Virus record (IMG/VR): IMGVR_UViG_3300048881_000780
Reading direction: 5' to 3' (one strand)
Length of the DNA stretch: 64,000 nt
DNA from: a virus
Lineage: Duplodnaviria; Caudoviricetes
Shown: positions 423 through 48,266 of the stretch, piece after piece
Layout: each line of letters opens with the position of its first letter
How positions within the stretch are numbered: position 1 is the first letter of the stretch
Notes under the pieces: model-generated
Told to the model about the DNA's origin: nothing
What the model saw: only the letters and a program-made list of their open reading frames with translations
Databases searched by the model: none
Position numbers and translations under genes: made by a program

Positions 423-430
423 TACGATAA
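423..430 (+). promoter_or_regulatory. TACGATAA promoter-like motif (first of 15 oriented intergenic copies)
   Basis: 21 nt upstream of ATG 452, followed by AGGAG RBS; same word and geometry recur across the window. Confidence 0.75.
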
Positions 431-451
431 GTATATTAATAGGAGATATGT

Positions 452-754
452 ATGAAATTAGATAATTTTACTGAAAATGAAATTGTAGATAATGTAGTTA
501 AGATATGCTCAATGTACATTGATCAATTAGACTATGACTGTGACCAGGATGGATACTTTCCCAGTTGTAAAAGTATTCACGAGATTATTGAAAAATATGT
601 AGAGAAGAATTTCTCTAATATTAGCGACAATGATTATAAAGTTATCGAGACTGTTTCAGAGTATCAACTTGAACAAAATTTTTCTTGGCCTATGCCTAAA
701 GATGAGGCCCTAGTTGAGCTAATTAGAGACTCGAGAAAGAGGCTAGCAAAATAA
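452..754 (+). CDS. Hypothetical acidic protein, 100 aa
   Basis: ORF with AGGAG RBS and TACGATAA motif. Confidence 0.75.
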   Translation: MKLDNFTENEIVDNVVKICSMYIDQLDYDCDQDGYFPSCKSIHEIIEKYVEKNFSNISDNDYKVIETVSEYQLEQNFSWPMPKDEALVELIRDSRKRLAK

Positions 755-909
755 CTATTTAATTTTAATAGAATAGATAGTATAATATAACTACCTGTTA
801 TTACTTAGTTTTTCTTCATATGAAAACCTTAGGGGTATCAATTCTAGGTGATTATATAGGTGCTTTAGTCTCTATGCGTTGGGCCCTTCATATTTCTTAT
901 AATAGATAT

Positions 910-1461
910 ATGAAAACGTTATTCAAATTAGTAACTTTAATTTTATTTTTTACATTCCTGTCTCTTTCATACGTAAAGTATCAAAAAACTAAAGAGCAAT
1001 TATCTGATTACCAGAAAAGAGTGGAGTACTCAAAGTCAAAGGAAATCAACTCGTCTAACTCTAAGTCAAAAAATGATAAAGAAGAGTTAGAAAAGAGTAG
1101 GGTAGTTAAGCAAAGTACAACTTTGCCATCACTTGTTCCACCTGGCTTTAGATCAAAGAAAACTATTCCAGATGCTAATATTAGAGATTTTAAATCAGAA
1201 GAGGAGTTCTCACTTGATGCCACTGATCTAGAGGTTTTATATCCTCTAGATACGGATGATACAGATTTTACAGTGAGTTGTTACTTTCAAAATATGCATT
1301 CAGTGAAACTGGTTAGTTGTACTACCACATCCATGAATTATGGTGAATATAGAGATGACGAAAGAGAGATCTTATTTTCATACTCTCTAAATGGAGATAC
1401 CTTTGATTCAGTTATGGTTGTCACGCCTTATTCCAAAAAGGAATCTCTGGATTCTTTTTGA
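910..1461 (+). CDS. Hypothetical membrane-anchored/exported protein (start likely 910, MKTLFKL)
   Basis: N-terminal hydrophobic helix after Met at 910; ORF track start 820 looks like an extension. Confidence 0.65.
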   Translation: MKTLFKLVTLILFFTFLSLSYVKYQKTKEQLSDYQKRVEYSKSKEINSSNSKSKNDKEELEKSRVVKQSTTLPSLVPPGFRSKKTIPDANIRDFKSEEEFSLDATDLEVLYPLDTDDTDFTVSCYFQNMHSVKLVSCTTTSMNYGEYRDDEREILFSYSLNGDTFDSVMVVTPYSKKESLDSF

Positions 1462-1469
1462 TTTACTAG

Positions 1470-1676
1470 CTATGGCTTTTTCTTATTTGAGGGAAGTGTT
1501 TCTATTGATATTTGAATATTTTTATCAAGATCTTGTACGAACTCTTTAGGCGAGAGGTCCTTATATTCTTTAAGTGAATTTAAAATTGTTAGACATACAT
1601 AGTCGTCAGCATCTTCTATCGACATTTGCTTGCGGGCCTTTAAGTATAAAAAGTGTAGTGACTCAAGTGTATCCAT
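1470..1676 (-). CDS. Small helical protein, paralogue of 16779..16985
   Basis: GGAG RBS; aligns with 16779 ORF (H.LY.K.R..M...D...I.N.L.....F..DL...I..SI). Confidence 0.7.
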   Translation of the reverse strand: MDTLESLHFLYLKARKQMSIEDADDYVCLTILNSLKEYKDLSPKEFVQDLDKNIQISIETLPSNKKKP

Positions 1677-1927: not shown

Positions 1928-2770
1928 ATGTTGTTTCTTAAAGTCTGTTTTTTTATTATTTCTGTTAATTTAATTCTTACTGGAGCCGTTAGCGCTCTTT
2001 TTCTAATTACGCCACTTGCAGGACTAATCAAGAATAGTTACGAAATTGTAGTGCCAATACTTTTTTCATTTTTCGCTACTTCTAATATGTTTCACTTAAA
2101 TAGGGAATCTAGAGATTATAAGAAAAATTACATTGAAGGGAGCTCCAATCAATTTAACGAGAATACTAAGAATAAGAGACTTAGAGATGTTGCAAAAATT
2201 GTAAAGAGAACTGCAAATATGTATAGAATTAAAATGCCTATATTATCGTACACAAAATGCGAAGAAGTGAACGCCTGGGCGTCAAGTCAATTATTTAAAA
2301 GAGATCTACTACACTTCTCATCTGGGGCCTTAGCTGATTTACCTTTGGATAAAATCGAAGGACTTATAGCTCATGAACTATCTCATTTACGTCATGGAGA
2401 TTCATTTAAAACACTCGTTCTCGAGGGCTTTTTTTCAAATTTAAGCTTCATGATTACAATTGCCACTTTTCCAGTGTCGATTATTATGTTTGTAGTAAAC
2501 CTTCTGAGGAATCCATTCTCTAAGAATAAATACCTTGATTTAAAGGTTATTTCATTTGATCACTTATTTGTTCAATATGTATGTTCTGTACAAAGAAAGA
2601 TGGAGTTTAGAGCAGATAAGGACGCAGTCAAGAAGGTTGGTTACGATAGGGTAGTTAGCATCTTAGAATTTTTAAAGGAAAATAATAAGTCTAATTATAC
2701 TTTAACTGAACAGGATCTAAAGATATCTACTCATCCCGACCCAAATCTTAGAATTCTAAATATTTCTTAG
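1928..2770 (+). CDS. M48 (HtpX-like) membrane zinc metalloprotease
   Basis: NAWA, AHELSH (HExxH), EFRAD and STHP motifs with TM helices. Confidence 0.9.
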   Translation: MLFLKVCFFIISVNLILTGAVSALFLITPLAGLIKNSYEIVVPILFSFFATSNMFHLNRESRDYKKNYIEGSSNQFNENTKNKRLRDVAKIVKRTANMYRIKMPILSYTKCEEVNAWASSQLFKRDLLHFSSGALADLPLDKIEGLIAHELSHLRHGDSFKTLVLEGFFSNLSFMITIATFPVSIIMFVVNLLRNPFSKNKYLDLKVISFDHLFVQYVCSVQRKMEFRADKDAVKKVGYDRVVSILEFLKENNKSNYTLTEQDLKISTHPDPNLRILNIS

Positions 2771-2778
2771 TAAAAAAG

Positions 2779-2797: not shown

Positions 2798-3055
2798 TTA
2801 AGCTAAAACTAATACAGCGATAATTGAATGATGAAGTTTTACATCTCGTGGACACAGCTCTAGAACTTCTTTTAGTGACTCTATTAACTTTGAAGAAATC
2901 GGCATATAGATTGATAATTCCGTCGCTGATAAATGTTCTTTAAAATAGTATGAGGCATACAGAATAGGCTTCATTTCGTTAGAAGAAAATAACTCAATAT
3001 TGTTAAAAATAAACTCGGTATCAGATTTGTGTACAGTTAAATTAAATTTTTCCAT
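2798..3055 (-). CDS. Hypothetical protein, 85 aa
   Basis: ORF with AGGAG RBS. Confidence 0.65.
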   Translation of the reverse strand: MEKFNLTVHKSDTEFIFNNIELFSSNEMKPILYASYYFKEHLSATELSIYMPISSKLIESLKEVLELCPRDVKLHHSIIAVLVLA

Positions 3056-3172
3056 AAAAACTCCTTGTCTATATTATATCAAGGGTTTTAGTGGTTTTAT
3101 TATTTAACGTAGTGTGTTTTATTTTGAATTCAGTGCTCCTGTGTACGTTATAATGTATATAGGAGGTGTCTC

Positions 3173-4245: not shown

Positions 4246-4773
4246 ATGAAAGATGTAATAATTAAATTCGACAACTTTTTAACTGAGAAGAATTTTAGCT
4301 TTGACGTTATAGTAATAGGTGGTGCAGCTCTTAATATTATGGGTGTCACAAATCGTGTAACTAGGGATGTTGATTGTATCGACCCTGAATTATCAGTTAA
4401 AATAAAAGAACTCTCTTATATATTTGCAACAGAAAATTACAACTTAGGACTTGATCCAAATAATTGGTTTAATAATGGCCCTATCTCGATATTAAATGAT
4501 TTAGATAAAGGATGGGAGTCTAGAGTAGTTTTAATATTTGAAGGGAGTTCTTTGAATATATCTACTCTAGGTAGAATTGATTTACTGAAAACCAAGTTAT
4601 TTGCATATTGTGATAGAGATATTGATTATGATGATTGCGTAAAATTAAATCCAACTATTCAGGAATTAAATGAATGTCAAAAATGGGTAAAAGATCGAGA
4701 CGCAAATGATCTATGGCCCAGTCACGTTGATAACTGTTTTAAGCTTATAGCCAAGGGGTTAGGGTATGAGTAA
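4246..4773 (+). CDS. Pol-beta-superfamily nucleotidyltransferase (DUF6036-like), putative TA/Abi component
   Basis: VIGGAAL...RVTRDVDC (GG...DxD); LKTKLFA..DRDIDYDD; start likely ATG 4246. Confidence 0.8.
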   Translation: MKDVIIKFDNFLTEKNFSFDVIVIGGAALNIMGVTNRVTRDVDCIDPELSVKIKELSYIFATENYNLGLDPNNWFNNGPISILNDLDKGWESRVVLIFEGSSLNISTLGRIDLLKTKLFAYCDRDIDYDDCVKLNPTIQELNECQKWVKDRDANDLWPSHVDNCFKLIAKGLGYE

Positions 4774-5444: not shown

Positions 5445-6458
5445 TTATTTAATTTCTCTAGGTCCTTCTACAGTGATTGAAGCTATCAGAAAACTTCCAT
5501 ACGAAGTGAGGTGTCTCGTTCCGATCGAACTAACTTCACTATTAGCGACAAATTGAAAAACGATTGTTCCAGAGTCGAGCATACTTCCTGAACCAAGTTC
5601 TTGATTAACATCAAATTCTACTCTAGTAGTTAAGACTCCATCGTGAGCCATAACTTTTAGCTCTCCTAATGGCCCAGCATTTTTTACAAACGGTACAGTA
5701 ACCGTATATGTTTCACCTGGAACAGTTGGAAACCCTTCTGAAATAGTGAAGGGAACTTGTCCTGATATTGTATATGAAACTTGCATACCGTCTATGCTAT
5801 GAAAGGCGTCACCATTTGGTCCAACCTTGCTAAATTGTCCCATACTTGAATCGAACCCTTCAGCAAAAACAGTATCGTGAACTAAATTTCTAATGTATGC
5901 AATTCTTTGAGATCTCTCAATTGAAAATGATCCAATAACACTGCTATTAACTTTTACTTCTACTTGACCGCTTTGATTTTGACCAATTAGAGCATGTTGT
6001 CCAATAACGACAAGAGGAGATGAATCTATACTCGCTTCTACATTTGAAGTATTACCATTAATTGGAAGCTTTACCCAACTTGAAATTCCATCAGCTAAGT
6101 CAAGACTTAGATCACCACCAGCTAGACTTGCACTTTGACCAGCAAAAGAAAAAGCGAATACCTTTCCATTAAACTTTTCATACATAATTAAAGATCTATT
6201 AGGAGGAGAAATAATATCTACAACGTGATCATCACCAACAATAGAGAAATTTAAATAAGTGGATAATCTACTTGAAGATAATGCCGTTTCTCCTAATTCT
6301 TCTTTTGTTCCTATTATAAAGCTACCAGAGTCAGGTAGTTGAACTTCATATACAACTGGGACTTCATAATTTGCAACAGTATTGTCTTGGTTTAAATTCG
6401 AACCAGGCTTTGAACACCCAATTAAAATCAACATTAAAAATAACGAAAGAATTTTCAT
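5445..6458 (-). CDS. Lipoprotein: shared N-terminal module plus beta-sandwich/CBM-like C-terminus
   Basis: Lipobox LIGC after start 6458 (AGGAG RBS); N-terminal ~180 aa strongly similar to 7785..9200. Confidence 0.8.
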   Translation of the reverse strand: MKILSLFLMLILIGCSKPGSNLNQDNTVANYEVPVVYEVQLPDSGSFIIGTKEELGETALSSSRLSTYLNFSIVGDDHVVDIISPPNRSLIMYEKFNGKVFAFSFAGQSASLAGGDLSLDLADGISSWVKLPINGNTSNVEASIDSSPLVVIGQHALIGQNQSGQVEVKVNSSVIGSFSIERSQRIAYIRNLVHDTVFAEGFDSSMGQFSKVGPNGDAFHSIDGMQVSYTISGQVPFTISEGFPTVPGETYTVTVPFVKNAGPLGELKVMAHDGVLTTRVEFDVNQELGSGSMLDSGTIVFQFVANSEVSSIGTRHLTSYGSFLIASITVEGPREIK

Positions 6459-6545
6459 ACATATAACTCCTATATAGTTATTTGTATTATAATTTTTTTC
6501 CAAATAATATTAACGAGACAATGTTTCCTGCCTAAGTGTATGAAT

Positions 6546-6909: not shown

Positions 6910-7194
6910 TCAAAAAACACCTTCTTGATAATTTTCAAAAATTAACTCTATCTCTCCAGGGTCATTTTTTATTAGTATCGGAAACTTTAAATCTTCATCT
7001 CTTTTATTATTTAGATCTTCTGCAACGAAACCTTCAACGAGGTATAATCTATGTTGGTGTTTCTTATATTCCTCTAGTGAATTTATAATCATTTTGTGCT
7101 TAAAGACAGATTTTCTAATTACTAGTCGATTCTTAACTAAATAACCAATTAACTGATTATTTTCAGTATCAATCTCGTAGAATATTTGGGCCAT
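6910..7194 (-). CDS. Hypothetical protein, 94 aa
   Basis: ORF with AGGAG RBS. Confidence 0.65.
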   Translation of the reverse strand: MAQIFYEIDTENNQLIGYLVKNRLVIRKSVFKHKMIINSLEEYKKHQHRLYLVEGFVAEDLNNKRDEDLKFPILIKNDPGEIELIFENYQEGVF

Positions 7195-7237
7195 AGAAAC
7201 TCCTTTATTTAATTATAAATCAAAACCTAGTGGTTTC

Positions 7238-7510
7238 TTACTTTTCTAATTGCATAGTTTTTAAATGGTGGATAATATCTCTGGTTGCACCTGGCTCTTC
7301 GATGGCATACTCTTTTAAGGATAGTCCCAAAAATTCATCACTTGGCACATGAATGAATTCATTTAATTCTCTATTGCTAAGGTTAAAAGTAAGTAGAATA
7401 TTATAGATTTTAATTAGATCTCTTTTAAGATTAATGCTTCTATTTACAACTCTAGTTTCTTTGCTTGTTAGTTTATAAACTATCGATAAGTCTATCATTT
7501 CTGTACTCAC
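7238..7510 (-). CDS. Hypothetical protein, possible degenerate Xre/MbcA C-terminal-like domain
   Basis: FIHVPSDEFLGLSLKEYAI resembles the motif in 3173..3481. Confidence 0.5.
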   Translation of the reverse strand: MSTEMIDLSIVYKLTSKETRVVNRSINLKRDLIKIYNILLTFNLSNRELNEFIHVPSDEFLGLSLKEYAIEEPGATRDIIHHLKTMQLEK

Positions 7511-7569
7511 TAATTAGATTTATATCTATTATAAATTTTTACGATAATAGATATAGACAAGGAGTTACG

Positions 7570-7764
7570 ATGAACAAGAAACAAAAAGAAGAATTAATAA
7601 ATGTAATAGCAGAGGTTTATCCTGAGGCAATTCAATCGATGGCCAAAACGATTTCAATAATTACTCTTACTATTTATGAAGAAGATGATGCCATTGGGGA
7701 TTTGAATACTATTTCGAGTGAAATATTAGAGATGATCAAGAAAAAGGTTGATAAGTCCTTTTAA
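7570..7764 (+). CDS. Small helical hypothetical protein (start 7570)
   Basis: AGGAG RBS and TACGATAA at 7540-7547. Confidence 0.7.
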   Translation: MNKKQKEELINVIAEVYPEAIQSMAKTISIITLTIYEEDDAIGDLNTISSEILEMIKKKVDKSF

Positions 7765-7784: not shown

Positions 7785-9200
7785 TTACTCAATCTCTCTG
7801 ATTGAAATATTATCGTAGAATCTATCTTGAGCAAATCCAGTAAAGTTAACACTCATTACTAAGTTGTGGCTTGTCGACTCAGCAACAAACACTCCAGATT
7901 TACCAGATGCGCTTATATAAATAAGAGGAGTTCCTGTGATACAATCCGTCTCATCTGTAATACAAGCTAAAACTCCGCCTACAGAATCAAGAACATCAAA
8001 TTCAACATAGTATGATTTATTAACTTCTAATCCAGTAATTGTTTGATGAATCCTACCATAGTTAGATGTAGCAGGATTTGATAACATTAAAACTCCAGAT
8101 GAAACAGAAGGTGTTCCCGTTCCAACTGAATTATCTTGCCATCCAACGAGGTTGTTAGAAAAATCTCCGTTGCTAACTAGGTTTGGCCCCACTAACTGCG
8201 AGCTCATATCTTTAATCGACACATTATCATAGAATAGAGTAGTTGCCCCATTAGTAGCACTTAGTGGCCCTAGTGATAATCTAATCGTACTAAGATCACC
8301 AGTATTAAATATTGCCTTATGAAAACCTCTCGCAGAATCAGCGATTCCACCGATGTATTCCATTTTTACATTCTCATAATTTATATCAGAGATAGCAACA
8401 TAGTGATCTACTACAAGAGTAGAATCAAAACTAAAAGTAATTACATAATCAGTATTTGGCTCTACTGTCATATCTTGATAAGTTCTAGCAAAGTCAGCGT
8501 TACTTACTATTGGTAGTTCAATTCTACCGTTATTAAATATGGCCATTGAAGGTCCTACAGAACTATCAATCCATCCATTTAAATCTTCTTCGAATCCACC
8601 GTTAATTACTAATTCACCAATAACCTCTTCACCTATAACAGCACTGCTCTCAGAGCGACCAACACTAAAAGAGCCGATTATATTACTATCTGCTTTAATT
8701 TCAATTTCTCCGACTTGAGAAGGGGACATAAATACATATCCACTGTTAACAACTAGGGGAGACTGATTAACACTTGCTTCTAGAACTCCATAGTTACCAC
8801 TAACTGGAATTCTTACCCAAGAAGAAATACCCATTGGAAGGTCGATATATGTTTGACCGCTCTCTAGAGATGCACTTTGACCAGCAAAAGAAAAAGCATA
8901 TACTTTACCATTTAATCTTTCATAAATTATTAGAGCTCTACTTGGTGAGTTTGATATCTCTGCAAAGTGATCATCTCCTGAAATTGAAAAATTTAAATAT
9001 GGTGATAACCTTACTGAACTAATTATATTTTCACCAAGATCTTCTTTTGATCCAATTGAAATACTTCCTGACTCAGGAATGACAACTTCATGAATTAACT
9101 TAGTTTGAACTTCATTGTAATTATCTAGTTCTTTTAAATCTGATCCAGGCTTGGAACAACCAACTAGTAATAGAATTAACAATAATGACAAAAATTTCAT
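7785..9200 (-). CDS. Lipoprotein: shared N-terminal module plus two CBM4/9-like domains
   Basis: Lipobox LVGC; two repeats starting LVINGGFE / LVSNGDFS and ending FYDNVSI / FYDNISI. Confidence 0.85.
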   Translation of the reverse strand: MKFLSLLLILLLVGCSKPGSDLKELDNYNEVQTKLIHEVVIPESGSISIGSKEDLGENIISSVRLSPYLNFSISGDDHFAEISNSPSRALIIYERLNGKVYAFSFAGQSASLESGQTYIDLPMGISSWVRIPVSGNYGVLEASVNQSPLVVNSGYVFMSPSQVGEIEIKADSNIIGSFSVGRSESSAVIGEEVIGELVINGGFEEDLNGWIDSSVGPSMAIFNNGRIELPIVSNADFARTYQDMTVEPNTDYVITFSFDSTLVVDHYVAISDINYENVKMEYIGGIADSARGFHKAIFNTGDLSTIRLSLGPLSATNGATTLFYDNVSIKDMSSQLVGPNLVSNGDFSNNLVGWQDNSVGTGTPSVSSGVLMLSNPATSNYGRIHQTITGLEVNKSYYVEFDVLDSVGGVLACITDETDCITGTPLIYISASGKSGVFVAESTSHNLVMSVNFTGFAQDRFYDNISIREIE

Positions 9201-9271
9201 AATAACTCCTATGATAGTTATAGTTATTATAGTTTTTTTATCAATAATATTAACAAGTTAGTGTTACTAGT

Positions 9272-10568: not shown

Positions 10569-10868
10569 CTATCTATATGGTAAGTATTCTCGTATATCAC
10601 TAGAGTCAGAGAGATCTTCATTGATCATAATTTCATCACCAACTTTAATCCCTAAATCTTTTAATTTCTGTATAAACATAGGTGCATCACAATCTTCTTC
10701 CAAAAATACGCATCCACCTCTTTGTTTTGAGCTTTTGGATATTTCACTGTGAATACCAAGCACATCAAGAACACATTTATCAACTTTCAGCCATCCATGT
10801 CCACCAGTGTAGAAAGTTAGTCCTTGTGGGTGAAGTTCATTTATTAAATCTAGTACTCTCTGTTTCAT
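10569..10868 (-). CDS. Mobile-element-type hypothetical protein (GHGWL...LEEDCD)
   Basis: GGHGWLKV and VFLEEDCDA motifs; TACGATAA at 10888-10895 (-). Confidence 0.7.
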   Translation of the reverse strand: MKQRVLDLINELHPQGLTFYTGGHGWLKVDKCVLDVLGIHSEISKSSKQRGGCVFLEEDCDAPMFIQKLKDLGIKVGDEIMINEDLSDSSDIREYLPYR

Positions 10869-11018
10869 TACTATCTCCTTTAAAGACTTATCGTAATTTA
10901 CGAGAAAGTGGCACTAGACAGATTCTCAATCTTTAGTAAGTTACCCAAGTTACTGTCATTAATGACCATTCTCGAAACTGACATTCCTTTGTGCTAATAT
11001 AAATTTAGAGAGGCTAAT

Positions 11019-11231: not shown

Positions 11232-11322
11232 TCCTATCTTTAAATATCATTTGCATTTTAAGACCCTAGATCGTTAGAGGATGGCACTTTATTTTCTTTA
11301 TAATATTGTAAAGGGAGTTATT

Positions 11323-11509: not shown

Positions 11510-11824
11510 TTATCTAATATTAAATTTACTGCGAATCTCTTTTACAGATAGACCTTGATTAGTGAGCTTTTTACAGCTTTTACAAATAGCAGAGAGACCA
11601 TCTTTTCGTCGACTCTCTTTTGCAAAATTCTTATTAGATTTTAATAGCGACTTCTTACATGTGGAACAATTCTTATATTCTGAGCCAATAGGAGTGTCTC
11701 GTTCTAGCAACACATAACCTAGGTGAATATTGGTTAGTCCACTTTTTTTAATAAGTTCCAAGAGTCTAGCCTTATCTTCTGGATTTTTAATTATAAAATC
11801 ATATCTTTCAATCTTGTAGCTCAT
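11510..11824 (-). CDS. Zinc-finger protein (CxxC...F...DG...CKxC), no nuclease domain
   Basis: CSTC...NFAKESRRKDGLSAICKSC. Confidence 0.7.
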   Translation of the reverse strand: MSYKIERYDFIIKNPEDKARLLELIKKSGLTNIHLGYVLLERDTPIGSEYKNCSTCKKSLLKSNKNFAKESRRKDGLSAICKSCKKLTNQGLSVKEIRSKFNIR

Positions 11825-12006
11825 AGATTAAGTACTACCTCAATAGTCGAAAGTACTCAATAAACTTTAACTCAGTTATCATATTTACCTTGTAATTTAT
11901 CGATAAAATCTGAATATGCAATCCTTTGAAATTATTCACTTAAACTTTAGGGTTATATCATTTGCAGATCTAGTGATAAAATCTATTATCACATGGAGAA
12001 ACCATT

Positions 12007-13290: not shown

Positions 13291-13378
13291 TTTGTTAAAA
13301 GCGATTTATCCTGTCGATCCAAATAATTCTCCCTGAATAAATAGTAAGTAGTTGTTATTACGATAAGGTTATAGAAAT

Positions 13379-13408
13379 CTTGTAGAATACTACAAGGTGC
13401 GTTATAAT
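13379..13408 (+). promoter_or_regulatory. sigma70-type promoter with palindromic operator over -35
   Basis: CTTGTAG-aata-CTACAAG (13379-13396); TTGTAG-N17-TATAAT. Confidence 0.75.
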
Positions 13409-13421
13409 GTAGGTGAGAGAT

Positions 13422-13721
13422 ATGAACGAATTAATAGAATTGGAGAAAGAAGAATTTATTGTTGTTAGGAGTAGGTTAGTTAAGAGAATTGAAATTCTGG
13501 ATAGAGCAAAGTTAAATGTTAACATGTCAAATGATAGAATTATAAATATTTTCTTAAATTATTACTCATATAAAGACATAGAACCAGTATACGAAGACAA
13601 TGATCACGGATACTTTGAAGATTCCCTCTCTGTTAATCTATTTGAGTATGAAATAAACTTTATATTCAGTTACAGGTCTTCAACTATCTCAATAGAAAAA
13701 ATAAGTCTAATTAAGGATTAG
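13422..13721 (+). CDS. Putative toxin-like partner of XRE antitoxin (copy 1)
   Basis: ~100 aa upstream of HTH gene; paralogue of 17407..17703. Confidence 0.6.
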   Translation: MNELIELEKEEFIVVRSRLVKRIEILDRAKLNVNMSNDRIINIFLNYYSYKDIEPVYEDNDHGYFEDSLSVNLFEYEINFIFSYRSSTISIEKISLIKD

Positions 13722-14701: not shown

Positions 14702-15129
14702 TTTTCACCTCATATTTATTATCGTAATCAATACAAGAGAAACTATGATTTTCTTAATATGGAGCCATCATTAATGTAGAGTCTTAGTCAGGTTTATGGG
14801 GTGATGTAATATTCTTTAATATAGGTGGTTTTGTAGGTAGTTTAATGTTTGGGAATAAAGGATCGCATATAGGGACTATGCGGTCTTAGTGTTATTTTGT
14901 AACGCTCTGGGTTGTCGCTAGAACTTTTTCTGGCATTTTTGGGTATATCTAGGCCTACTTAAAATTTACTCCAGTAACTATTAATAGTTCGTAGTTACTG
15001 GATAAAAAATGGTTAAATTCTCTCCGTAGTTGGCACAGTATAAATTTACAAAAATGGACTTAATACTGTTACTAGAATTTAGTAACACCTAGTAACGTTA
15101 CAACAATTAAGTAACGCTATTGTTTTACT

Positions 15130-15212: not shown

Positions 15213-15273
15213 GTTTTAGAATTTCAGACATTGTTACTGATATAAATACGATAAATATCATAGGAGATATCTT

Positions 15274-16413: not shown

Positions 16414-16549
16414 TTAACCTCCATTTCTTTAATTATCGTAAATTAAAAACTTTCAAGACTTACCCCTCTTAGCGTTTACATATTTAATAACGTTAGCAAG
16501 CGTTTATAAAACCACTAACGCTTTTTACGATAATCTAATTGAGGTTTTT

Positions 16550-16778: not shown

Positions 16779-16985
16779 ATGGATGTCGCTGATAAAATTC
16801 ATGAATTATACAGGAAGTCTAGACTAGAAATGAATGCTAAAGATACTAATTCATTTATTGCTTCAATAATTTCAAATTGCCTATACGATAATAAACACAA
16901 TTCCGAGCAGTTTAAAATAGATCTACTCAAAGAGATCGAGGATTCTATAAAAGTGATTGAAAAAACCTATAAGAACGGTTCTTGA
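16779..16985 (+). CDS. Small helical protein, paralogue of 1470..1676
   Basis: GGGAG RBS; sequence similarity to 1470..1676. Confidence 0.7.
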   Translation: MDVADKIHELYRKSRLEMNAKDTNSFIASIISNCLYDNKHNSEQFKIDLLKEIEDSIKVIEKTYKNGS

Positions 16986-17364
16986 TTTTGATAGGTATTT
17001 GTATTGACCAGAAAAAGAAGCAAAATCTCATTTAGAAATAACATTACAAAACTTTCTTTAAAAAGAATTTTGAATCTCACCAAGACTTTTCATTAGCCCT
17101 AAAAAAAGAGCTTTCAAGTATGATTTTTATTGTAAAAAACGATCCCAAGTTCAATGGGGACAAATCTTTATATACATATTTTCAAATGAAGCTACTAGGA
17201 ATAATAAAAATCCAAAAGACTTCAGTGATAACTTACTCCGTAAAATTTATGATTCCTATAATGCTGATGATTCAAATATCAAATGCTCAGAAAACCATAA
17301 TAGATCAAATATGAGCATTTAAACTCGCTCAAGTGTCTAAAATTACGATAATTATATAAGTAAT

Positions 17365-17394: not shown

Positions 17395-17406
17395 TAAGGA
17401 GTTGTA

Positions 17407-31805: not shown

Positions 31806-31838
31806 TAATTCCTCAGTGCTTATAATTCTCTTATCGTA

Positions 31839-33535: not shown

Positions 33536-33572
33536 TATATTCTCTTTTGTTTAGCTTCATTTAAATATTTTC

Positions 33573-35507
33573 TCATATTGAATCAACTCCATTTCTAAAG
33601 AGTTCTTTTCGAGGGCCTGAATCTTTAGAAAAGCAAATAGATAGTACTTTTTGGATTTCACTTTCATCATCGATTAGCAATGTTTGATACTCAGTCTCTT
33701 TCATTAAGTAATCCCAGGCTTCTCTACTCATTTCACCAAGACCTTTATTCCTATTTATACGTTTAATTTTTAAACTTTTTTTACTCTTTAATTTTTCCAA
33801 TTCACTATCAGTTGAGCAAAATAATAGCCCCTTATTTGTTTCTAATTCATAGAGTGGAGCTTTTGCTAACTTAACTTGTCCATTTTTAAAAAGCTCAGGC
33901 CAAAACTTAAAAAAGAAATTAATTAGGAGTGTATTTATATGGCCCCCATCAACATCCGAATCTGCAAGAAATACTATTTCTGGAAATCTCATCTCTTCTC
34001 TATCTGAAGACTTTGATAAATCTAATCCAATTGCAGATATAATATCTTGATACTCTTGGTTTTTAATTACGTCCTTAATGTCGCACGATAAAACATTTAA
34101 AGGTTTTCCCTTAAGGGGTATCCCACCTTGAGTTTCTTGATCACGAGAACTTCTAAGTCCGGCGATCGCAGAGTCTCCCTCGCATATAAATAGTTGACAC
34201 TTACTTCTATCTTTTCTTGCATTGGCATCTAATAATTTTGCTACTTTCTTTTTTCTAGATTTTTTTGCAAGCTTTGATGCCTCTTTTAAAAAATCCTGCT
34301 GTTTTCTCTTTTTAGCTCGCTCAATAACTTGTTCTAAAAAGTCCTTGTTTCTTCTGAAAAACAAAGACATTGATTCACCCATTGCACTCTCTATGGCCTT
34401 TTCTAGAAATGAGTGTTTCACCATCTTTCTCTTAGTTTGAGATTCAAATCTGGCGTTTGGAATAACTAGATTTATGACAAATACCATTCCCATACATATA
34501 TCTAAATCAGATATATCAATCTTTTGTCTCTTGGCCTCTTTCTTTAATTTATCTTTTATCGAATTAATAAAGAACCTTCTAACCTTATCGTGATGATAAC
34601 CACCATCAAAAGTTGGTGTTGAATTTACAAATGAAATAAACTCTTCTCTTTCAGCTGACTTTTTATTAAAAAAAGTAAGTATATCTAAATCAATTAACCC
34701 CTTTACAGGTTTCTTCTTAGAGTCTTTTGTTACATATGTATGTTGATATCTTTTAACTAGGTAATTACCTTTATGACTAGGAAGTAGAGGTATTAACTCT
34801 TCTAATCCCTTTTTAGTAAAAAATACTTCTTTATTAAACGTAAATTTAAGACCTGGGTTTATATATGATAAATCGATAATTCTTTTTCTTATATAGGATT
34901 CATCAAGGAGTGCGTCCCCATATACTTCAGGAGACAACTTAAGAGTTATTTTTACACCAGATTTTCCTGAAAATTTCTTGGTTCTTTTTTCTTTTATTTT
35001 ATTTGCACCATCAACAAATACAACAGTCTTCTCTTTTTTCTTTGATTTGTGTCTAACTGTTACCTCAAATAAATCAGAAGTTAAGCATGTGGCAGATGAA
35101 CCTACTCCATTTTGCCCAAGTGTTCTAGAGAGGTAGCCATTCTCATCTGATTCATTATCACCAAACTTTGACCCTACTCGGTACTCAGAGTAAACAGGTA
35201 CTATCTTACTAACATCGAAACCAATACCGTCATCTTCAATAGTAATAGTCTCTCTATCCTCACTTAGAGTTACTTTTATATGTTTAACATTACCTCTTAA
35301 GTATTCATCAATAGAGTTGTCTATAATCTCCTCGATGGCCTTATTTTTTGCCTGGTGAAATTGAAATTCAGAAAAAACTAATTCTTTATCTTTGTAAGTA
35401 TGTGTTTTTAGACCTTCTATACTATTTGAACCAAATGTTAATTCTACCCTATTTCTAGAATGCCAACGCTGTGACTTTTTCTCGATAATAGCTTCTTTTT
35501 TTGCCAT
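33573..35507 (-). CDS. Type IIA topoisomerase subunit B (GyrB/ParE-like)
   Basis: EIIDNSIDE, DDGIG, GQNGVG, EGDSA, PLKGK, DSDVDG.HI, KGLGEM. Confidence 0.94.
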   Translation of the reverse strand: MAKKEAIIEKKSQRWHSRNRVELTFGSNSIEGLKTHTYKDKELVFSEFQFHQAKNKAIEEIIDNSIDEYLRGNVKHIKVTLSEDRETITIEDDGIGFDVSKIVPVYSEYRVGSKFGDNESDENGYLSRTLGQNGVGSSATCLTSDLFEVTVRHKSKKKEKTVVFVDGANKIKEKRTKKFSGKSGVKITLKLSPEVYGDALLDESYIRKRIIDLSYINPGLKFTFNKEVFFTKKGLEELIPLLPSHKGNYLVKRYQHTYVTKDSKKKPVKGLIDLDILTFFNKKSAEREEFISFVNSTPTFDGGYHHDKVRRFFINSIKDKLKKEAKRQKIDISDLDICMGMVFVINLVIPNARFESQTKRKMVKHSFLEKAIESAMGESMSLFFRRNKDFLEQVIERAKKRKQQDFLKEASKLAKKSRKKKVAKLLDANARKDRSKCQLFICEGDSAIAGLRSSRDQETQGGIPLKGKPLNVLSCDIKDVIKNQEYQDIISAIGLDLSKSSDREEMRFPEIVFLADSDVDGGHINTLLINFFFKFWPELFKNGQVKLAKAPLYELETNKGLLFCSTDSELEKLKSKKSLKIKRINRNKGLGEMSREAWDYLMKETEYQTLLIDDESEIQKVLSICFSKDSGPRKELFRNGVDSI

Positions 35508-35530: not shown

Positions 35531-35550
35531 TAACACTTTGTGTTATCGTA
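35531..35550 (-). promoter_or_regulatory. TAACAC-ttt-GTGTTA palindrome overlapping a TACGATAA motif upstream of the topoisomerase operon
   Basis: Perfect palindrome 35531-35545; TTATCGTA 35543-35550. Confidence 0.7.
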
Positions 35551-39613: not shown

Positions 39614-41713
39614 ATGAGTATTTTAGATATTGAATTTGGGCAAAATAAGACTACGATGTACGATGTTGTAAATGCATTAAGTACTTTTAATAATTACGAT
39701 CAGGATGAAAAAAGATGGCAAGAAATGCTAGAAATCCATTTTCAAAAAATTGGTCGAACTTATGAAAGAGAAGTTCATATATCTAAAGAGAGTATTATCG
39801 ACTTTAAAATGGACCGCATAGGCATTGAACTTAAGACAAAAGGCCGAGTTAGAGATGTATATCGTCAAATAAAGAGATACCTAGAAACCGATGAGATTGA
39901 TGAGATCGTATTACTTACAACAAAGAATTTTTCACTACCATCAAAAATAAATGGAAAAACTGTAAGAGTTATCAATAAAAGTTTCAATATCCTTAAAAAT
40001 CAAAAAAGTAAGAATAGAAATATAGAGAGAGACCCTGGTACTTATGGCACAATCGTTTACTCAAGTGAAATTAATTCTTGGAAACTAGATGTTGACGCAA
40101 ATGTCTCCATGAGACTTAAGAGAATTTTAGATTTCTTACCTAAGACATCGAGACCGCCATTTATTATTAAGAATACACCGGAAAGGTGCGCTGACTTAAA
40201 TTGGGTTATGACTAGATATCCTCTTACTATATCTAAAAAGGATCATAAGTTTCTAAACAAAAAAGAAAGTGAGTTTAAAGAGTTTATTTCTTCTTGTGAT
40301 GAAATACTTATGAATAAATCATACTCTATTGATGTTGATCTAACTGATACATATAAATTAAGAAGCTATCAATCTCAATATGTTGGATTAGCTGGAAAAG
40401 TTAAAAGAATCTTTAATGCCGATGACACTGGTCTTGGAAAGACTTTAGAGTGTCTTGCTCATATCGTAGACGTTGGCAAATTTCCAGTAGTCATATGTTC
40501 ACAAACAACTAATCAGATACAATGGTTTGAAGAAGCTTCAAAGGCAACTAATTTAAAAATTGCTTTTTTATCAAAGGGTAAACTTAAAGAATCTGACTTA
40601 GATGCAGATATCTATATAACTAGGTACTCACTACTTGCTAAACATATGGACTACTTTCTCGCTAAAGATATCGACTCTATTCACTTTGACGAAATTCAGG
40701 AACTTAGAAATTCTGGTAGTGATAAATACAATGCGGCCTATACATTATCTCAATTTTGTAACGGAGTAACTGGTTACTCAGCAACCCCGATCTACAATAG
40801 AGGTAGTGATGTTTTTAATATTTATACTATTATTGATAAATCAATTCTAGGGAGTTGGTCTGAATTTTCAAGAGATTGGTGTATTAACACATTTCAAGAC
40901 GATAAAGGTGATATTAAAGATCCTGTTGCACTAAGGTCATACCTTATTGAGATAAATAAAATGATCAGAAGAACAAGAGAAGATGTTCAATTAGAACTTC
41001 CACCTCTAGATATTACACCATACCTAATTGAGCACGATAAAAAAGAAATCGATCGATTTGAATCTCTACTAAAAGATCTAGCTATTAAAACTCTTGAAAG
41101 TAAGGATGAATTCGAAAGAGGTCGCTTATCTAACCAGTTAGATATGAAAGCTCGTGAGATGACTGGTATTTCAAAAGCCCGCACGGCGGCGGCTTTCATT
41201 AGGGATTTAATTGACCAAGGTAGACGGCCTGTTGTTGTTGGTTGGCACCGAGAAGTATGGAATATACTGAGTGAGGAGTTATCTGATAAAAACCTTGTTT
41301 TCATAACTGGAAATGAAAATCCAAAACAAAAAGATCTAAATAAGAAGAAGTTTATAAATGATGAAGCTGACGCTCTTTGTGTTTCAATCAGAAGTTGCGT
41401 TGGTATTGATGGTCTTCAGGAAGCCTCTAGCGATATTGTATTCATTGAATTTGATTGGTCGCCAGCTGTCCATAAACAAGTAATAGAGAGACTTTGGCGA
41501 TTTAAACAGCGTAATACTACAAGTGTTTACTACTTAATAGCTGAAGCTGGTACAGATCCAGCTATGATTGAAAAACATGGTGTCAAGAAACAACAATTAG
41601 AAGGCTTTGTAAATGGTGAACAATTGGATGAAAATGCATTTGGTGGATCAAAGAGCAATAGACCTTCTGGAATTGAATTTGCTAACTCTATTTTAAAAGG
41701 GAAGAAGAAATAG
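39614..41713 (+). CDS. SNF2-family helicase/translocase with N-terminal PD-(D/E)xK nuclease-like domain
   Basis: REV...IDF...IGIELK; ADDTGLGKT, DEIQ, SATP, GIDGLQ, DWSP.VHKQ..ERLWR. Confidence 0.87.
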   Translation: MSILDIEFGQNKTTMYDVVNALSTFNNYDQDEKRWQEMLEIHFQKIGRTYEREVHISKESIIDFKMDRIGIELKTKGRVRDVYRQIKRYLETDEIDEIVLLTTKNFSLPSKINGKTVRVINKSFNILKNQKSKNRNIERDPGTYGTIVYSSEINSWKLDVDANVSMRLKRILDFLPKTSRPPFIIKNTPERCADLNWVMTRYPLTISKKDHKFLNKKESEFKEFISSCDEILMNKSYSIDVDLTDTYKLRSYQSQYVGLAGKVKRIFNADDTGLGKTLECLAHIVDVGKFPVVICSQTTNQIQWFEEASKATNLKIAFLSKGKLKESDLDADIYITRYSLLAKHMDYFLAKDIDSIHFDEIQELRNSGSDKYNAAYTLSQFCNGVTGYSATPIYNRGSDVFNIYTIIDKSILGSWSEFSRDWCINTFQDDKGDIKDPVALRSYLIEINKMIRRTREDVQLELPPLDITPYLIEHDKKEIDRFESLLKDLAIKTLESKDEFERGRLSNQLDMKAREMTGISKARTAAAFIRDLIDQGRRPVVVGWHREVWNILSEELSDKNLVFITGNENPKQKDLNKKKFINDEADALCVSIRSCVGIDGLQEASSDIVFIEFDWSPAVHKQVIERLWRFKQRNTTSVYYLIAEAGTDPAMIEKHGVKKQQLEGFVNGEQLDENAFGGSKSNRPSGIEFANSILKGKKK

Positions 41714-41715
41714 AA

Positions 41716-41773
41716 AACGTACGTCATATTTAACGTACGTCATATTTAACGTACGTTAGAAATAACGTACGTT
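41716..41773. repeat. Four copies of palindromic AACGTACGT(T/C), 16-bp period
   Basis: Copies at 41716, 41732, 41748 and 41764 between convergent genes. Confidence 0.92.
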
Positions 41774-41785
41774 AAGTGACTTAAA

Positions 41786-43024
41786 TTAGATTGATTCTAG
41801 ACGAATATTATCAATTAGAGCACCGGAAGTATTATTATCCTCAATGGCCCTAAATTCCACCTTCATTAGATCACCAGTTCCAAGCAATTCATACTCAAAT
41901 GTTTGCCATTGTTTCTCTTGAGAACTTATGTAGTCCATAACTTCTCCATCAATAACAACTTCCATATCAGAACTCTCTGTTCCTGTCCTAGAGAAGTAAT
42001 CTAGTGATAATCTATATTTTTCTACTGAACTTGTCTCAATCATTTGAAAGATAGAAACGTCACTATCTGTAAAATGACTATTCTTATGAGCGTCCAGTTC
42101 AATTTTCACATTTCCAGAACTTGGAGCAATTCCACCAGTATTTCCGTATTGAACCTCTACTCCAGAGTTTGAATATTCAAGATTAATATCAAATCCATAT
42201 AAAGAATCAGTCACATACCAACCACTCTCTCTTTCTAGCTCCATTTCAAAATCACCATTAAGAACTAGGTTTTTCTGATAATTTGGATTAGAAACCTCTT
42301 CTCTTAAAAGAGATGAAGTATTGAAGTGTTTTCTTTTTGCCTGAGGAATAGTAATTGTCATATCTCCAGATCTTACGAGTAATTGTCCGGCCATTCTCAA
42401 AGAACCATCAGTCGAGTCCTCAGTTGGACATGAATATCCCGCTCTTTTTTGATCATTTGTAAGTTCTTCACAGCTAACAATTGATCTACATACTTGATCT
42501 TGAGAATTCGCTCTTTCACAAATTGGAGACTTTTCATAAGAAAGTAGTAACTCTCTATACTTTTCCATAACTCTAAAATACTTCTCTTGAAGCGATTCAA
42601 TTTTTTCATTATTTTGAGTATCAAACTCTGTTCTAATTCCAAGCTCCACATTTAAAGAACGCTCAATTTTAGAGAGTCTATACTCGAGTATCTCAAGTCT
42701 AACATCAGAAATTCTCTCAGATTGCTCCTCTTTCTTTGTGTTTAACAATAAAAGAAGAATTTTTCTTTCTAGAATATATCTGTCTTGTTCTACCAAGTTC
42801 TTAATTCTCTTTTCGATTCGTCTATATCTAGGAGAATCAGACAGTTCACTAAGCTTTTGCTGAAGAACGACAACTCTTGCTCTATTAGAATCCTGTTTTC
42901 TTTCAAATTTGTGTAACTTACCTTCTTGTTTTGGCTCAAGCTTCGTTCCAAATACATGATTATTACATGCTCCTAATGTAGGAAGAACTAATGCTAAAAG
43001 TACGAATGATTTGATTTTTTTCAC
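41786..43024 (-). CDS. Lipoprotein: coiled-coil stalk plus C-terminal CBM/DUF642-like domain
   Basis: Lipobox LGAC; charged heptads; NLVLNGDFE...GALIDNIRL. Confidence 0.78.
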   Translation of the reverse strand: MKKIKSFVLLALVLPTLGACNNHVFGTKLEPKQEGKLHKFERKQDSNRARVVVLQQKLSELSDSPRYRRIEKRIKNLVEQDRYILERKILLLLLNTKKEEQSERISDVRLEILEYRLSKIERSLNVELGIRTEFDTQNNEKIESLQEKYFRVMEKYRELLLSYEKSPICERANSQDQVCRSIVSCEELTNDQKRAGYSCPTEDSTDGSLRMAGQLLVRSGDMTITIPQAKRKHFNTSSLLREEVSNPNYQKNLVLNGDFEMELERESGWYVTDSLYGFDINLEYSNSGVEVQYGNTGGIAPSSGNVKIELDAHKNSHFTDSDVSIFQMIETSSVEKYRLSLDYFSRTGTESSDMEVVIDGEVMDYISSQEKQWQTFEYELLGTGDLMKVEFRAIEDNNTSGALIDNIRLESI

Positions 43025-46300: not shown

Positions 46301-46837
46301 ATAACTAGTTGTAAAACGAGTTGTATCTACTGGAAATGGAGTCTGAATAAGTTCTGTTCCAGTGTTTTCAATTAAAAAAGTCTTAGTTATTCTTTCTCCA
46401 GCTCTAGCTTCACCAATGGCCCAAGAGTTCGGAAAAATAGAAAACCTTCCTCCACCAATTGCCTCTCCGGTAACAATTAGAGATTCTCCATAGAAATTTA
46501 AAGTAATCGACTTATTACCTTCCGTTGTTGGTGTAAAATGAAATACATATGTACAAATAGTCTGAGGAGGTATGGAGCTAAATGAACACCCATTTGTTGC
46601 AGATTTAAAAACTAACTCATTACTACTCATCGATATTTGAGGACTAAGTGAGTTACTTGATGAATTTCCAACCTTTACACTAATCTCAGATGATAGACCA
46701 ATCTTTACTTTTCCGGCCTTTAGAACGCTGGAAATAACTCCTTCAACCTGTGGTACAGATGTATCAGCCTCTTTACTTTTCTTATTCTGACAAGATACTA
46801 AAGCAAATAAAAGTACTAGAAATAATAGATGTTTCAT
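43367..46837 (-). CDS. Large lipoprotein with Ig-like (ASH and invasin Big_1-type) domains and a Kelch-like C-terminal region
   Basis: Lipobox LVSC; D..GN.V.DGT repeats; YIYGG / FIYGG / YIIGG. Confidence 0.8.
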   Translation of the reverse strand: MKHLLFLVLLFALVSCQNKKSKEADTSVPQVEGVISSVLKAGKVKIGLSSEISVKVGNSSSNSLSPQISMSSNELVFKSATNGCSFSSIPPQTICTYVFHFTPTTEGNKSITLNFYGESLIVTGEAIGGGRFSIFPNSWAIGEARAGERITKTFLIENTGTELIQTPFPVDTTRFTTSYTNCPELGLRPGEQCQIEIKFREIYSGLVSDKLEMKVNDSVRSSITYNADVYPGDPSGIISFRNCPIKLNVDDPLLQECEAIVTDEFGNAVSDGTLAQISTTNSILEVVDQTVLTQNGVALIKFKSGSTTGEASFTVSSSLALGAITIPYTSGPAVGEISLFPYNNILRANGANSVVLRTRPLLNVNGDVVDDGTEVEFEIFEGSGTFNDRSSVEKAYTVNGEAFIKYTASLSTGEVRFRMKSNPLYSGEGHLLGYGANGQNSITLVPSAPSGDFEINTSEPSIYYEFGDLEYPSTTSVVIGPAKDPQGNPVGAGTPIDVSLYNAVAHGGISEGRSVFTVTTGSDSLATFVVRGIGIKGPITITGTLNSKSVSKQIQSVGRETYRFKDSNNRLNLYKTNVNSIFSPSLEVPPFSANWFPYQGPTTAIEKNSGQFISQTNYSKKIFEVNYNFPFMSSNCIASVVDFFVWGPCTMEVHNSARGLIDRGGSDRSYSLFYGGELNVFRSNGNDLAGWLDFATTDSRAFGTNNIMYANTLYLKDSDIYYIYGGLSHDFDDSSLRINNKFGTYKYPSLLKNNLDSLSFEKFTNSQVPFPEGALFPGISEETPLGIFIYGGLKSVGSQMQSSSKVTLARAPIGPESVPIVFIEKGVVADPNFGMPQARFSPIVHYSSIYEKVYIIGGFAVNSQTGEWEYLDEIWSFEPTEEDREVQWFRVCKGCGLPSVSTSVVSAIIDAFVIDDGEEDNLDTIAEKTKVISDNLYNGKVIFDSATRKTHYFSDDKVFQLDLLSGISFEVSSFDIFGDQFVGDEIVYNEVTNRYLFYSRGDRDRTPGKVSVFDSLPGHKSALMVKMSLRDHAKEFARKLNIKVNAIAKASTVAGLSNVYGVQLYAYNFIEDQWILMSESNESSLFLMKDRPMEYLLEFKDGDVSSIDPREFINDDNEHFLMVTPKEEPGYQGTPFLSDGESSLYLEFVELTEGVF

Positions 46838-47021
46838 ATAGAATTCTCCATATGTCTATTTTAAGAAAATAGAAGTCATACTAAAAAGAAATTGGAAGTG
46901 AATGATAACTTCCGTTTTTTTCCGGAACCCCTAGTAACAAAGATAACCCACTAAAATTACTAGGGTTTTATTTTGTGTATTAATCTCCATAAGTTTGTTG
47001 AGGTTAGTACACAATTCTTAA

Positions 47022-47594
47022 TTAGGCGACGTCATCAAAATCTGTTCTCATTTTTAGATTTTTACAATTTTCATGAACCTCTCTTAAATTAATCATAAAT
47101 TCCTGATCTGAAAATTCTTCTAGTTTCTTTTTTAATGAGTTGTAAATTAATTCTGCACTTTGAAGCTTCTTTTGATCAAACTCTGAACCTGAATTTTCTT
47201 CGGACATACAGCTAATCATTGACTGTAAATTATCCTCCATTTCCATTAAATGTGAAATAAGTCCAACATATCTCTTTGCATAAGAATAATCGAAATCATA
47301 TGCGTTCATTTTGTATAAATGAGGCATATTTAAGAGAACTTCTTCATTTAAAACTAGGTTCTTTCTAAATTCATCCTTCATCTTAAATAGAATCTCAAAT
47401 AATCTAACGTCATCCTCGTTTTCTTCTATTGGAATATCGAATCCATAAAACTCTAATTCGTCATTCAATTGCTTTATTAATTGTCTGGCCTTTTGCACGA
47501 TAATTGCCGGAACTAATTGGTAATAGGATTTACCTTCATCTGCAATAAGCTTTGATATTAACTGTCTATGTAGTGATAGTATCGTCTCTGTCAT
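47022..47594 (-). CDS. Hypothetical helical protein, 190 aa
   Basis: GGGGG RBS; TACGATAA at 47627-47634 (-). Confidence 0.7.
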   Translation of the reverse strand: MTETILSLHRQLISKLIADEGKSYYQLVPAIIVQKARQLIKQLNDELEFYGFDIPIEENEDDVRLFEILFKMKDEFRKNLVLNEEVLLNMPHLYKMNAYDFDYSYAKRYVGLISHLMEMEDNLQSMISCMSEENSGSEFDQKKLQSAELIYNSLKKKLEEFSDQEFMINLREVHENCKNLKMRTDFDDVA

Positions 47595-47652
47595 TTAAAT
47601 CCCCCAATGAATGACTATCACTACACTTATCGTAAATAATTAAACTAATTAG

Positions 47653-48216
47653 TTAATTCTTACCAGTTGAGCCAAAACCACCACTTCCTCGTTCAGTTTT
47701 ACTTAATTCTTTAACTTCTTTGATTTTTAACTGTGTTGCTGGTGATATTACACCTTGGGCCAGTCTATCGCCTTTTTTTACTTCATAAGCATTTTCACTA
47801 GTATTAAAGAATGCTAAGTAGATGACACCACGATAGTCAGAATCTACACATCCAATACCATTGGCAAGCATCAGTGGAGTTTTAGAAATTGAACTTCTTG
47901 ATTGTACTCTTAATTCAAATCCAAGTGGAACCTCGGCCATGACACCAGTAGAGATAAGCCTTCTTCCTCCTGCTGGAATTGAGACATCCTCATTACAGAT
48001 AAAATCAAATCCCGCCGCGCCAACTGTCTTATATGATGGAATTTTGGCATCTTTATTTTCCTTGGAAAATTTAATCTCCAATAGACCCATTTTGAATTTT
48101 ATATGATTCATAACTAGCTTTAAATTATTAGTATCTTTATTTTCGTCAAAGAATTTACTAACTTTTAGCTGGATTTTTTCAACTTGTACTTTTAAGAATG
48201 CGATAAATTTATTCAT
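47653..48216 (-). CDS. dut: Trimeric dUTPase with ~44-aa N-terminal extension
   Basis: AAGFD, SRSS, GCVDSDYRG, GDRLAQ, RGSGGFGSTG. Confidence 0.95.
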   Translation of the reverse strand: MNKFIAFLKVQVEKIQLKVSKFFDENKDTNNLKLVMNHIKFKMGLLEIKFSKENKDAKIPSYKTVGAAGFDFICNEDVSIPAGGRRLISTGVMAEVPLGFELRVQSRSSISKTPLMLANGIGCVDSDYRGVIYLAFFNTSENAYEVKKGDRLAQGVISPATQLKIKEVKELSKTERGSGGFGSTGKN

Positions 48217-48266
48217 AATAACTCCCTAGTTACTATATTTATCGTATTCTTAATCGATCTGGGGAA

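Follow-up and report, generated by a model that had tools for sequence, protein, structure and literature searches.

An invariant, oriented 8-mer as candidate core of a private promoter class on an orphan 361-kb plasmid-like element

The 64,000-nucleotide stretch of DNA considered here in full (the window; IMG/VR record IMGVR_UViG_3300048881_000780) belongs to an orphan, plasmid-like element of 361 kb from an uncultivated bacterium, and carries the 8-mer TACGATAA (the word) in front of 15 of its transcription units. These occurrences form an all-or-none class defined by a single, oriented 8-mer, as is evident from the absence of any -35 element, the presence of a second half-site in a few sites only, and the lack of one-mismatch variants at promoter positions anywhere in the window. 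From the placement and geometry of the word we infer its role in promoters, a register and a start site. It would constitute the -10-type core of a -35-independent promoter class, and we lean, by no great measure, toward a dedicated sigma factor, probably encoded by the element itself, as its reader.

Distribution of the word and its place in the promoter slot

The word occurs 18 times in the window, against 2.58 copies expected from dinucleotide-preserving shuffles (maximum 8; none of 100 reached 18) and four copies of a compositional control word. A rough gene map comprises 67 genes and leaves 8.9% of the window intergenic; 15 of the 18 copies fall within that fraction, every one of them in the sense orientation toward the gene downstream. 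No other 8-mer is as strongly enriched in oriented upstream regions as the word, which has 15 of its 18 copies there (P = 6.5e-22), and the same count places TTATAAT/TATAATA second. All eight positions are invariant across the 15 sites. The distance from the 3' end of the word to the start codon is 16-35 nt in 13 sites and 55 nt in two HigBA-like operons (sites 13359 and 17344), the figure for the former assuming an ATG at 13422. The three intragenic copies (2243 and 7810 on the minus strand, 16884 on the plus strand) are about as many as chance would supply. The first-pass annotation of this DNA had listed the same 18 coordinates and strands, all of them exact, and its accompanying observations (most words 15-35 nt from the start, 55 nt at 13359 and 17344, only three copies within genes) are reproduced by our measurements. 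Its description of a 15-gene regulon is right as to the number of promoters and too low as to genes, at least 18 of which would be driven, since three of the units are two-gene operons. Two further sequences were considered for membership of the class and rejected: TACGTTAA, which is part of an operator, TAACRY-N3-RYGTTA, and of the AACGTACGTT repeat, and TATGATAA, which is an ordinary sigma-70-like -10 box. A literature search with the bare word returned only primers.

Inspection of all upstream regions revealed that many genes without the word have TATAAT instead, often as TTATAAT, equally far from the start codon. Of those units whose upstream gap measures 25 nt or more, 13 have the word only, 16 have TATAAT only, two have both and 17 have neither, which amounts to a negative association of the two (Fisher P = 0.026). 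The start codon lies at a median distance of 21 nt from the word and of 18.5 nt from TATAAT. The negative association and the similar distances together argue that the word takes the place of the -10 box in units which otherwise have no recognisable promoter. Divergent intergenic regions, where each side needs a promoter of its own, point to the words as candidates in the same manner: three such regions (14719/15247, 16433/16526 and 18459/18471) have a word on both sides. The last of them, 18438-18496, measures 59 bp, and nothing in it is conserved but its two words, with 4 bp between them. Slot, orientation, exclusivity, geometry and the internal footprint described below lend good support to the earlier proposal that the word would be an oriented core-promoter element.

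Upstream of the word little else is shared. A logo of the 15 sites contains no upstream information except W at -1, and box counts are similarly low, with TAAA at -35 spacing in 3/15 (background 0.08, P = 0.11), TTGW in 1/15 and a CCACT box in only two; the lack of a consistent -35 noted in the first-pass annotation is borne out by both. The TATAAT class has no clear -35 of its own, two-hexamer sigma-70 matches numbering 82, against 101 in shuffles. Examples of that class are found at 2798-3172, 6910-7237, 11232-11322, 22705-22797 and 53740-54355, among others. In the stretches 5445-6545 and 7785-9271, the promoter regions of two of its members, the genes for a 337-aa and a 471-aa protein, are near-duplicates of the form GTTAATATTATT..AAAAAA-TATAAT-A..ATAACTAT..ATAGGAGTTAT, which suggests that these loci are paralogous cassettes.

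The HigBA-like operons, each encoding a protein of ~99 aa followed by an HTH_37 protein, offer an internal footprint. They are old paralogs (45% and 56% protein identity), and the DNA in front of them, otherwise diverged, has three blocks in common: ATTACGATAA, both arms of a palindrome with a 7-bp stem, and GGTGCGTTATAAT. The stems display compensatory changes, CTTGTAG..CTACAAG in one operon versus CTTGCAA..TTGCAAG in the other (13359-13421 and 17344-17406). Retention of these three blocks argues that both units have tandem promoters, one of each class, on either side of a palindrome that is probably the operator of the antitoxin, and the preservation of ATTACGATAA supports a promoter function for the word it represents. 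In the second operon, a start from the TATAAT promoter would fall inside the Shine-Dalgarno (SD) sequence.

Predicted register and start of transcription

Messages of this element evidently tend to start right at the SD sequence, judging from its position relative to TATAAT. In the TATAAT class the SD begins no closer than 6 nt to the box, and the seventh base beyond it is a purine in 12 of 13 cases, the textbook sigma-70 start. The SD adjoins the predicted +1, with TATAAT-N6-A-AGGAG in five units, and leaders of only 10-12 nt seem to be the rule on the element. Given this habit of starting at the SD floor, the TATAAT class can be used to calibrate the register of the word. Distances from the word to the SD are 7 nt in six sites and 10, 10, 11, 12, 16, 21 and 21 nt in others, with a minimum of 7. 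The eighth base after the word is a purine in 14 of the 15 sites (P = 0.0005), and in 8/9 of those where the SD begins later (P = 0.02); a purine occupies the fifth base in 10/15 (A in 9/15) and the seventh in 6/15. Both the floor and the purine thus lie one base further out than in the TATAAT class, which would put the 3' end of the word at -8 and its span at -15 to -8. This is the register published for sigma-28, (-15)GCCGATAA(-8) (PMC12784957). A role for the word as a -35 or upstream activator box is excluded, because only 16-22 nt separate it from the start codon in most sites and a -10 box located downstream would put the start inside the coding sequence.

Candidate readers of the word

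The mechanism that we favour would have RNA polymerase, together with a dedicated and most likely element-encoded sigma, bind T-15 A-14 C-13 G-12 A-11 T-10 A-9 A-8, with A-11 flipped, and begin transcription at the purine 8 nt after the word. The resulting leaders would be very short, beginning at or just before the SD. About 15 units would in this way be driven apart from the TATAAT promoters: two ART-like genes, two HigBA-like pairs, the FtsK-Mrr gene, the B and A subunits of topoisomerase II, dUTPase and small proteins, the topoisomerase promoter being additionally covered by a palindromic operator. Eight invariant positions, the lack of variants at promoter positions and the absence of any excess in the host lineage (see below) make a dedicated reader, rather than one of the host, the most likely on present sequence evidence.

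Several observations weigh against this view. The absence of a -35 is a general property of the element, since the TATAAT class also has no clear one. The purine signal at the eighth base is partly confounded by the purines of the SD itself. An alternative register, with TACGAT at -12 to -7 (T-12, A-11 and T-7) and a purine at the fifth base in 10/15 sites, would fit, and the two registers predict starts at different places, 8 nt and 5 nt after the word; residues Y430, W434 and Q437 of a reported candidate sigma peptide would suit the TACGAT register. A sigma factor, envisaged earlier as possibly encoded by the element, was sought in the window, and no sigma domain was detected among the 59 window proteins scanned; the sole trace of one is a match to region 4, below threshold, in an HTH antitoxin. 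Nor was a related element found among deposited phages or plasmids.

A narrower proposal concerns the nature of the dedicated sigma. The candidate peptide is reported to be RpoD-like, with FSTYATQWINQKI in region 2.3/2.4 in place of the FSTYATWWIRQAI of group 1, and the reader may tentatively be pictured as an RpoD-derived sigma of the element which has lost its tryptophan wedge (W433Q) and its reading of the -35, and has converged on CGATAA with TA as extended -10; we regard this as possible and rather doubtful. If the peptide is as reported, the loss of the wedge would be shared with sigma-28, which has none (PMC12784957). A degenerate DNA pattern for the peptide stretch YATQWINQK had no match in viral and metagenome collections or in 238 Bacteriovoracia genomes.

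Among readers supplied by the host, the flagellar and attack-phase sigma-28 (FliA), which would tie these genes to the host programme, is the one that survives best, and we judge it unlikely. The resemblance is real: the match of the word's core to the sigma-28 -10 element, recognized in the first-pass annotation, extends to a CGATAA identical to the -10 proper in 15/15 sites, and the class shares with sigma-28 promoters (FliA/SigD/WhiG; TAAA or CTAAAG, N15-16, GCCGATAA) its inferred register, its +1 and an unconserved -7. Flipping of A-11 and the lack of conservation at -7 both belong to the register published for sigma-28 (PMC12784957). The nearest relatives of the topoisomerase are all from Bacteriovoracia, and the candidate host phylum has FliA as a global regulator; most attack-phase promoters of Bdellovibrio bacteriovorus are controlled by it, with sigma-28 promoters of the form TTAAG-N16-CCGATA (PMC3627812). 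On the other hand, contacts with the -35 are described as essential for initial recognition by sigma-28 (PMC12784957), and its -35 box, YTAAR, is found at the right spacing in none of the 15 sites, nor is there a -35 at any other spacing. Flagellin loci were fetched from five Bacteriovoracia genomes, and four flagellin promoters of this group show, in contrast to the word, a sharp CTAAAG in the arrangement T-run-CTAAAG-N16-CGATA(A/T); the two bases preceding their core are GT, GG or AG, with at least one G. The GC of the extended -10 is read through its guanines by a conserved arginine, and promoters with both bases changed are reported to be severely defective (PMC12784957), whereas TA replaces GC in all 15 sites. 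The eight strict bases, and the absence of flagellar or chemotaxis genes among the targets, are further differences.

The genomes of the candidate host lineage lead to the same view. In 41 Bacteriovoracaceae genomes the word was counted 5122 times against 6573 for the control, a ratio of 0.78 (range 0.38-1.57) that shows no enrichment in chromosomes of the candidate host lineage; its density there is 0.037 per kb, versus 0.28 per kb in the window. This lack of enrichment argues that the word belongs to the element and not to the promoter vocabulary of the candidate host, whose placement is itself drawn from one gene. With two defining features of sigma-28 promoters missing and the word not enriched in that lineage, dependence on FliA is unlikely, and the earlier suggestion that the element taps the host FliA or life-cycle programme is not upheld.

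Somewhat less probable still, in our estimation, is reading by the housekeeping sigma, with TACGAT as the -10 box and the invariant CG and AA maintained for an accessory activator, an appropriator or a monomeric repressor. TACGAT equals TATAAT at -12, -11, -8 and -7 and so keeps the key T-12, A-11 and T-7; transcripts would begin in this register at the fifth base after the word, and that base is A in 9/15; the element's TATAAT promoters share the lack of a clear -35; and at 54314 the sequence TACGA-TATAAT overlaps a normal -10 box. However, base-specific use of -10 and -9 by sigma-70 is small, so that a CG invariant in 15/15 sites needs another reader, and no candidate accessory factor was identified. 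In addition, the floor of the SD would come to +4, compared with +1 in the TATAAT class, and the purine signal is weaker (10/15 as against 14/15 in the sigma-28 register).

Least probable, and in our view quite improbable, is that the word is no promoter at all, but an operator or half-site, or a signal in the 5' leader acting at the RNA level as a translational operator or processing site. What lends it some substance is an unrelated phage contig. The 20-mer of the back-to-back pair 18459/18471 is found in one IMG/VR contig, IMGVR_UViG_3300036389_000002 (L002; 52.4 kb, 44% G+C), in which the word occurs 12 times, against once for the control, each time within a 24-bp palindrome, GGTTAYCGTAA-NN-TTACGATAACC, of the repressor-operator type. 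Such an array points to a multi-site repressor operator system in that phage, and since the word serves another purpose there, the operator reading was tested on the window. No other similarity of DNA or protein connects the two, no window protein being homologous to those of L002. Palindromic arrangements exist at two loci of the window (18459/18471 and 10888/10899), and these are the exceptions to the rule: in the other 12 of the 15 sites the best second half-site matches at 4-5 of 8 positions, which is the background mode, and an operator for a dimeric repressor was rejected on this count. A sense orientation in 15/15 is likewise not required of a symmetric operator. An RNA element would be compatible with the fixed distance to the SD as well, but needs a promoter upstream, where nothing is conserved and where the 59-bp divergent region leaves hardly any room. 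Either version would leave these units without a recognisable promoter, given that the word and TATAAT largely exclude each other.

Target genes, the replicon and comparable systems

Sites of the word and the genes behind them are listed in Table 1. The regulon seems to be regional and rich in conflict-type genes, with 11 of the 15 sites located in the first 19 kb. Among the targets named in the first-pass annotation, the FtsK-Mrr fusion, the topoisomerase and dUTPase are confirmed by Pfam, and the two ART-fold genes are backed at the level of leads, by ESM Atlas neighbours. Seven targets of 42-190 aa have no detectable family.

Table 1. Copies of the word in the window, related elements and associated genes (coordinates refer to the window, except in the last row).
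Feature	Position	Strand	Context
Promoter word	423..430	+	21 nt before ATG of 452-754 (100 aa, no family); 8th base A
Promoter word	7540..7547	+	Before 7570-7764 (64 aa); divergent partner 7238-7498(-) has TATAAT
Promoter word	10888..10895	-	Before 10569-10868 (99 aa); SD begins at 8th base
Imperfect inverted copy, TACGAGAA	10899-10906	+	Adjoins site 10888
Promoter word	13359..13366	+	Upstream of HigBA-like operon 1 (13422-13721, 13724-14050 HTH_37); followed by palindrome 13379-13396, then GGTGCGTTATAAT
Promoter word	14719..14726	-	Before 14072-14701 (209 aa; ART-like lead, DRAT/DarT ESM Atlas neighbours)
Promoter word	15247..15254	+	Before 15274-15807 (177 aa; ART-PolyVal/AcrIF11-like lead, ESM Atlas neighbours)
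Promoter word	16433..16440	-	Before mini-gene 16285-16413 (42 aa)
Promoter word	16526..16533	+	Before mini-gene 16550-16699 (49 aa); SD at 8th base; 16 nt to ATG, the smallest spacing
Promoter word	17344..17351	+	Upstream of HigBA-like operon 2 (17407-17703, 17705-18040 HTH_37); followed by palindrome 17365-17382, then GGTGCGTTATAAT
Back-to-back divergent pair of promoter words, TTATCGTA-ACTT-TACGATAA	18459..18478	both	Predicted to drive 18069-18437(-) (122 aa) and 18497-19015(+) (172 aa); SD begins at 8th base after word on both sides
Promoter word	31831..31838	-	Before 28155-31805 (1216 aa; FtsK/SpoIIIE + Mrr_cat, Pfam)
Promoter word	35543-35550	-	Before topoisomerase II B (33573-35507) and A (32192-33535)
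Promoter word	47627..47634	-	Before 47022-47594 (190 aa, no family)
Promoter word	48239..48246	-	Before dUTPase 47653-48216; just past end of DNA polymerase III (Pol III) alpha gene
Intragenic copy	2243..2250	-	Antisense in M48 peptidase gene; probably chance
Intragenic copy	7810..7817	-	Near 3' end of 7785-9200(-), 25 nt before stop
Intragenic copy	16884..16891	+	In small open reading frame 16779-16985; no SD or start codon in next 35 nt
24-bp palindrome, examples	4260-4290, 11545-11580, 11895-11925		On contig L002, each containing the word

The eighth base after the word is A in all three intragenic copies. That at 7810, if active, would give rise to an RNA antisense to the mini-gene 7570-7764(+), which itself lies behind a promoter word. 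Between the divergent sites 14719 and 15247, the interval 14727-15246 comprises 520 bp without a convincing open reading frame and includes terminator-like hairpins at 14859-14887 and 14917-14934; a gene for a small RNA, or a site acting in cis, might be located in it, and no Rfam family was found there or elsewhere in the window. A perfect palindrome, TAACAC-N3-GTGTTA (35531-35545), begins inside the topoisomerase promoter word and covers the predicted start. Operators commonly overlie core promoters in this way, in line with the role proposed for the word. Elsewhere, four tandem copies of the 10-bp palindrome AACGTACGTT (41714-41785; period ~16 bp) occupy the whole interval separating the convergent genes for SNF2 (39614-41713) and a 412-aa protein (41786-43024), an array that looks like iterons or a partition (centromere-like) site.

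The window has 32% G+C and no tRNA genes. It encodes an 1823-aa Pol III alpha, a DnaB-like helicase, an SNF2 protein, a Dam-type methylase, a tyrosine integrase, a split type II topoisomerase, dUTPase, the FtsK/Mrr fusion, giant Ig-repeat proteins and many proteins of no family. The Pol III alpha gene (48267-53738) is unusual in that its recognised domains end near residue 1245, leaving ~570 C-terminal residues without a Pfam match, and in that its PHP match, to a model of 164 positions, extends over residues 11-280 and so suggests an insertion. The topoisomerase (32192-35507) is split into a B subunit of 644 aa and a short A subunit of 447 aa. The B subunit lies on a 361,129-bp contig and has a uniform 53-57% identity to the chromosomal homologue in all 80 Bacteriovoracia genomes retrieved; this equidistance argues that it is an outgroup to the gene of that clade and not a recent capture, and suggests a host in or near Bdellovibrionota. 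The best IMG/VR match to the topoisomerase is 28%, no sequence in the plasmid and phage collections exceeds 32% identity to Pol III alpha, and megablast of the window against phages gave no match.

Private promoter classes of mobile elements are a known kind of system, with which the class described here can be compared. The late promoters of phage T4 consist of TATAAATA, recognised by gp55 acting together with gp33 and the sliding clamp. The comparison with this -10-only word made in the first-pass annotation fits the architecture: in both cases one invariant 8-bp -10 word, with no -35, defines a dedicated regulon in a mobile genome that encodes its own replication proteins. The element differs from T4 in the sequence of the word, in that no gp55-like or gp33-like protein was identified, and in showing no sign of coupling to replication. 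In Bacillus subtilis, plasmid pBS32 encodes a sigma, SigN, that has its regulon on the plasmid alone (PMC6751061). There the likeness lies in a large plasmid with a private promoter class whose consensus is absent from the chromosome, and the difference in the possession of both -35 and -10 boxes and in a reader established biochemically, where the present element has a candidate. The middle and late promoters read by gp36 of phage phiEco32 have AATGTA centred at -11.5 (PMC12276001), and resemble the proposed class in relying on a short -10 word, a sigma of the mobile element and a temporal class apart from sigma-70 promoters; the word is a different one, however, and gp36, only distantly homologous to sigma factors, works with the obligatory co-factor gp79, no such pair being known here.

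Sigma factors encoded by mobile elements, with promoters of their own, are the means by which phages and a few plasmids insulate and time the expression of their genes. The present case is unusually clean, in that the 8-mer never varies, no -35 accompanies it and the 361-kb element that carries it is an orphan, and the word copies the core of the sigma-28 -10 element but alters exactly the two bases that sigma-28 needs. It also provides an immediate, if predicted, map of operons and start sites for a region that is almost entirely unannotated. Should the RpoD-like candidate be the reader, it would represent a natural example of -10 re-engineering and a compact orthogonal pair of promoter and sigma, in which a group-1 sigma would have been rewired to a -35-independent specificity that insulates some of the element's genes, among them toxin-antitoxin pairs and ADP-ribosyltransferases of an anti-defence-like kind, from the promoters of its host.

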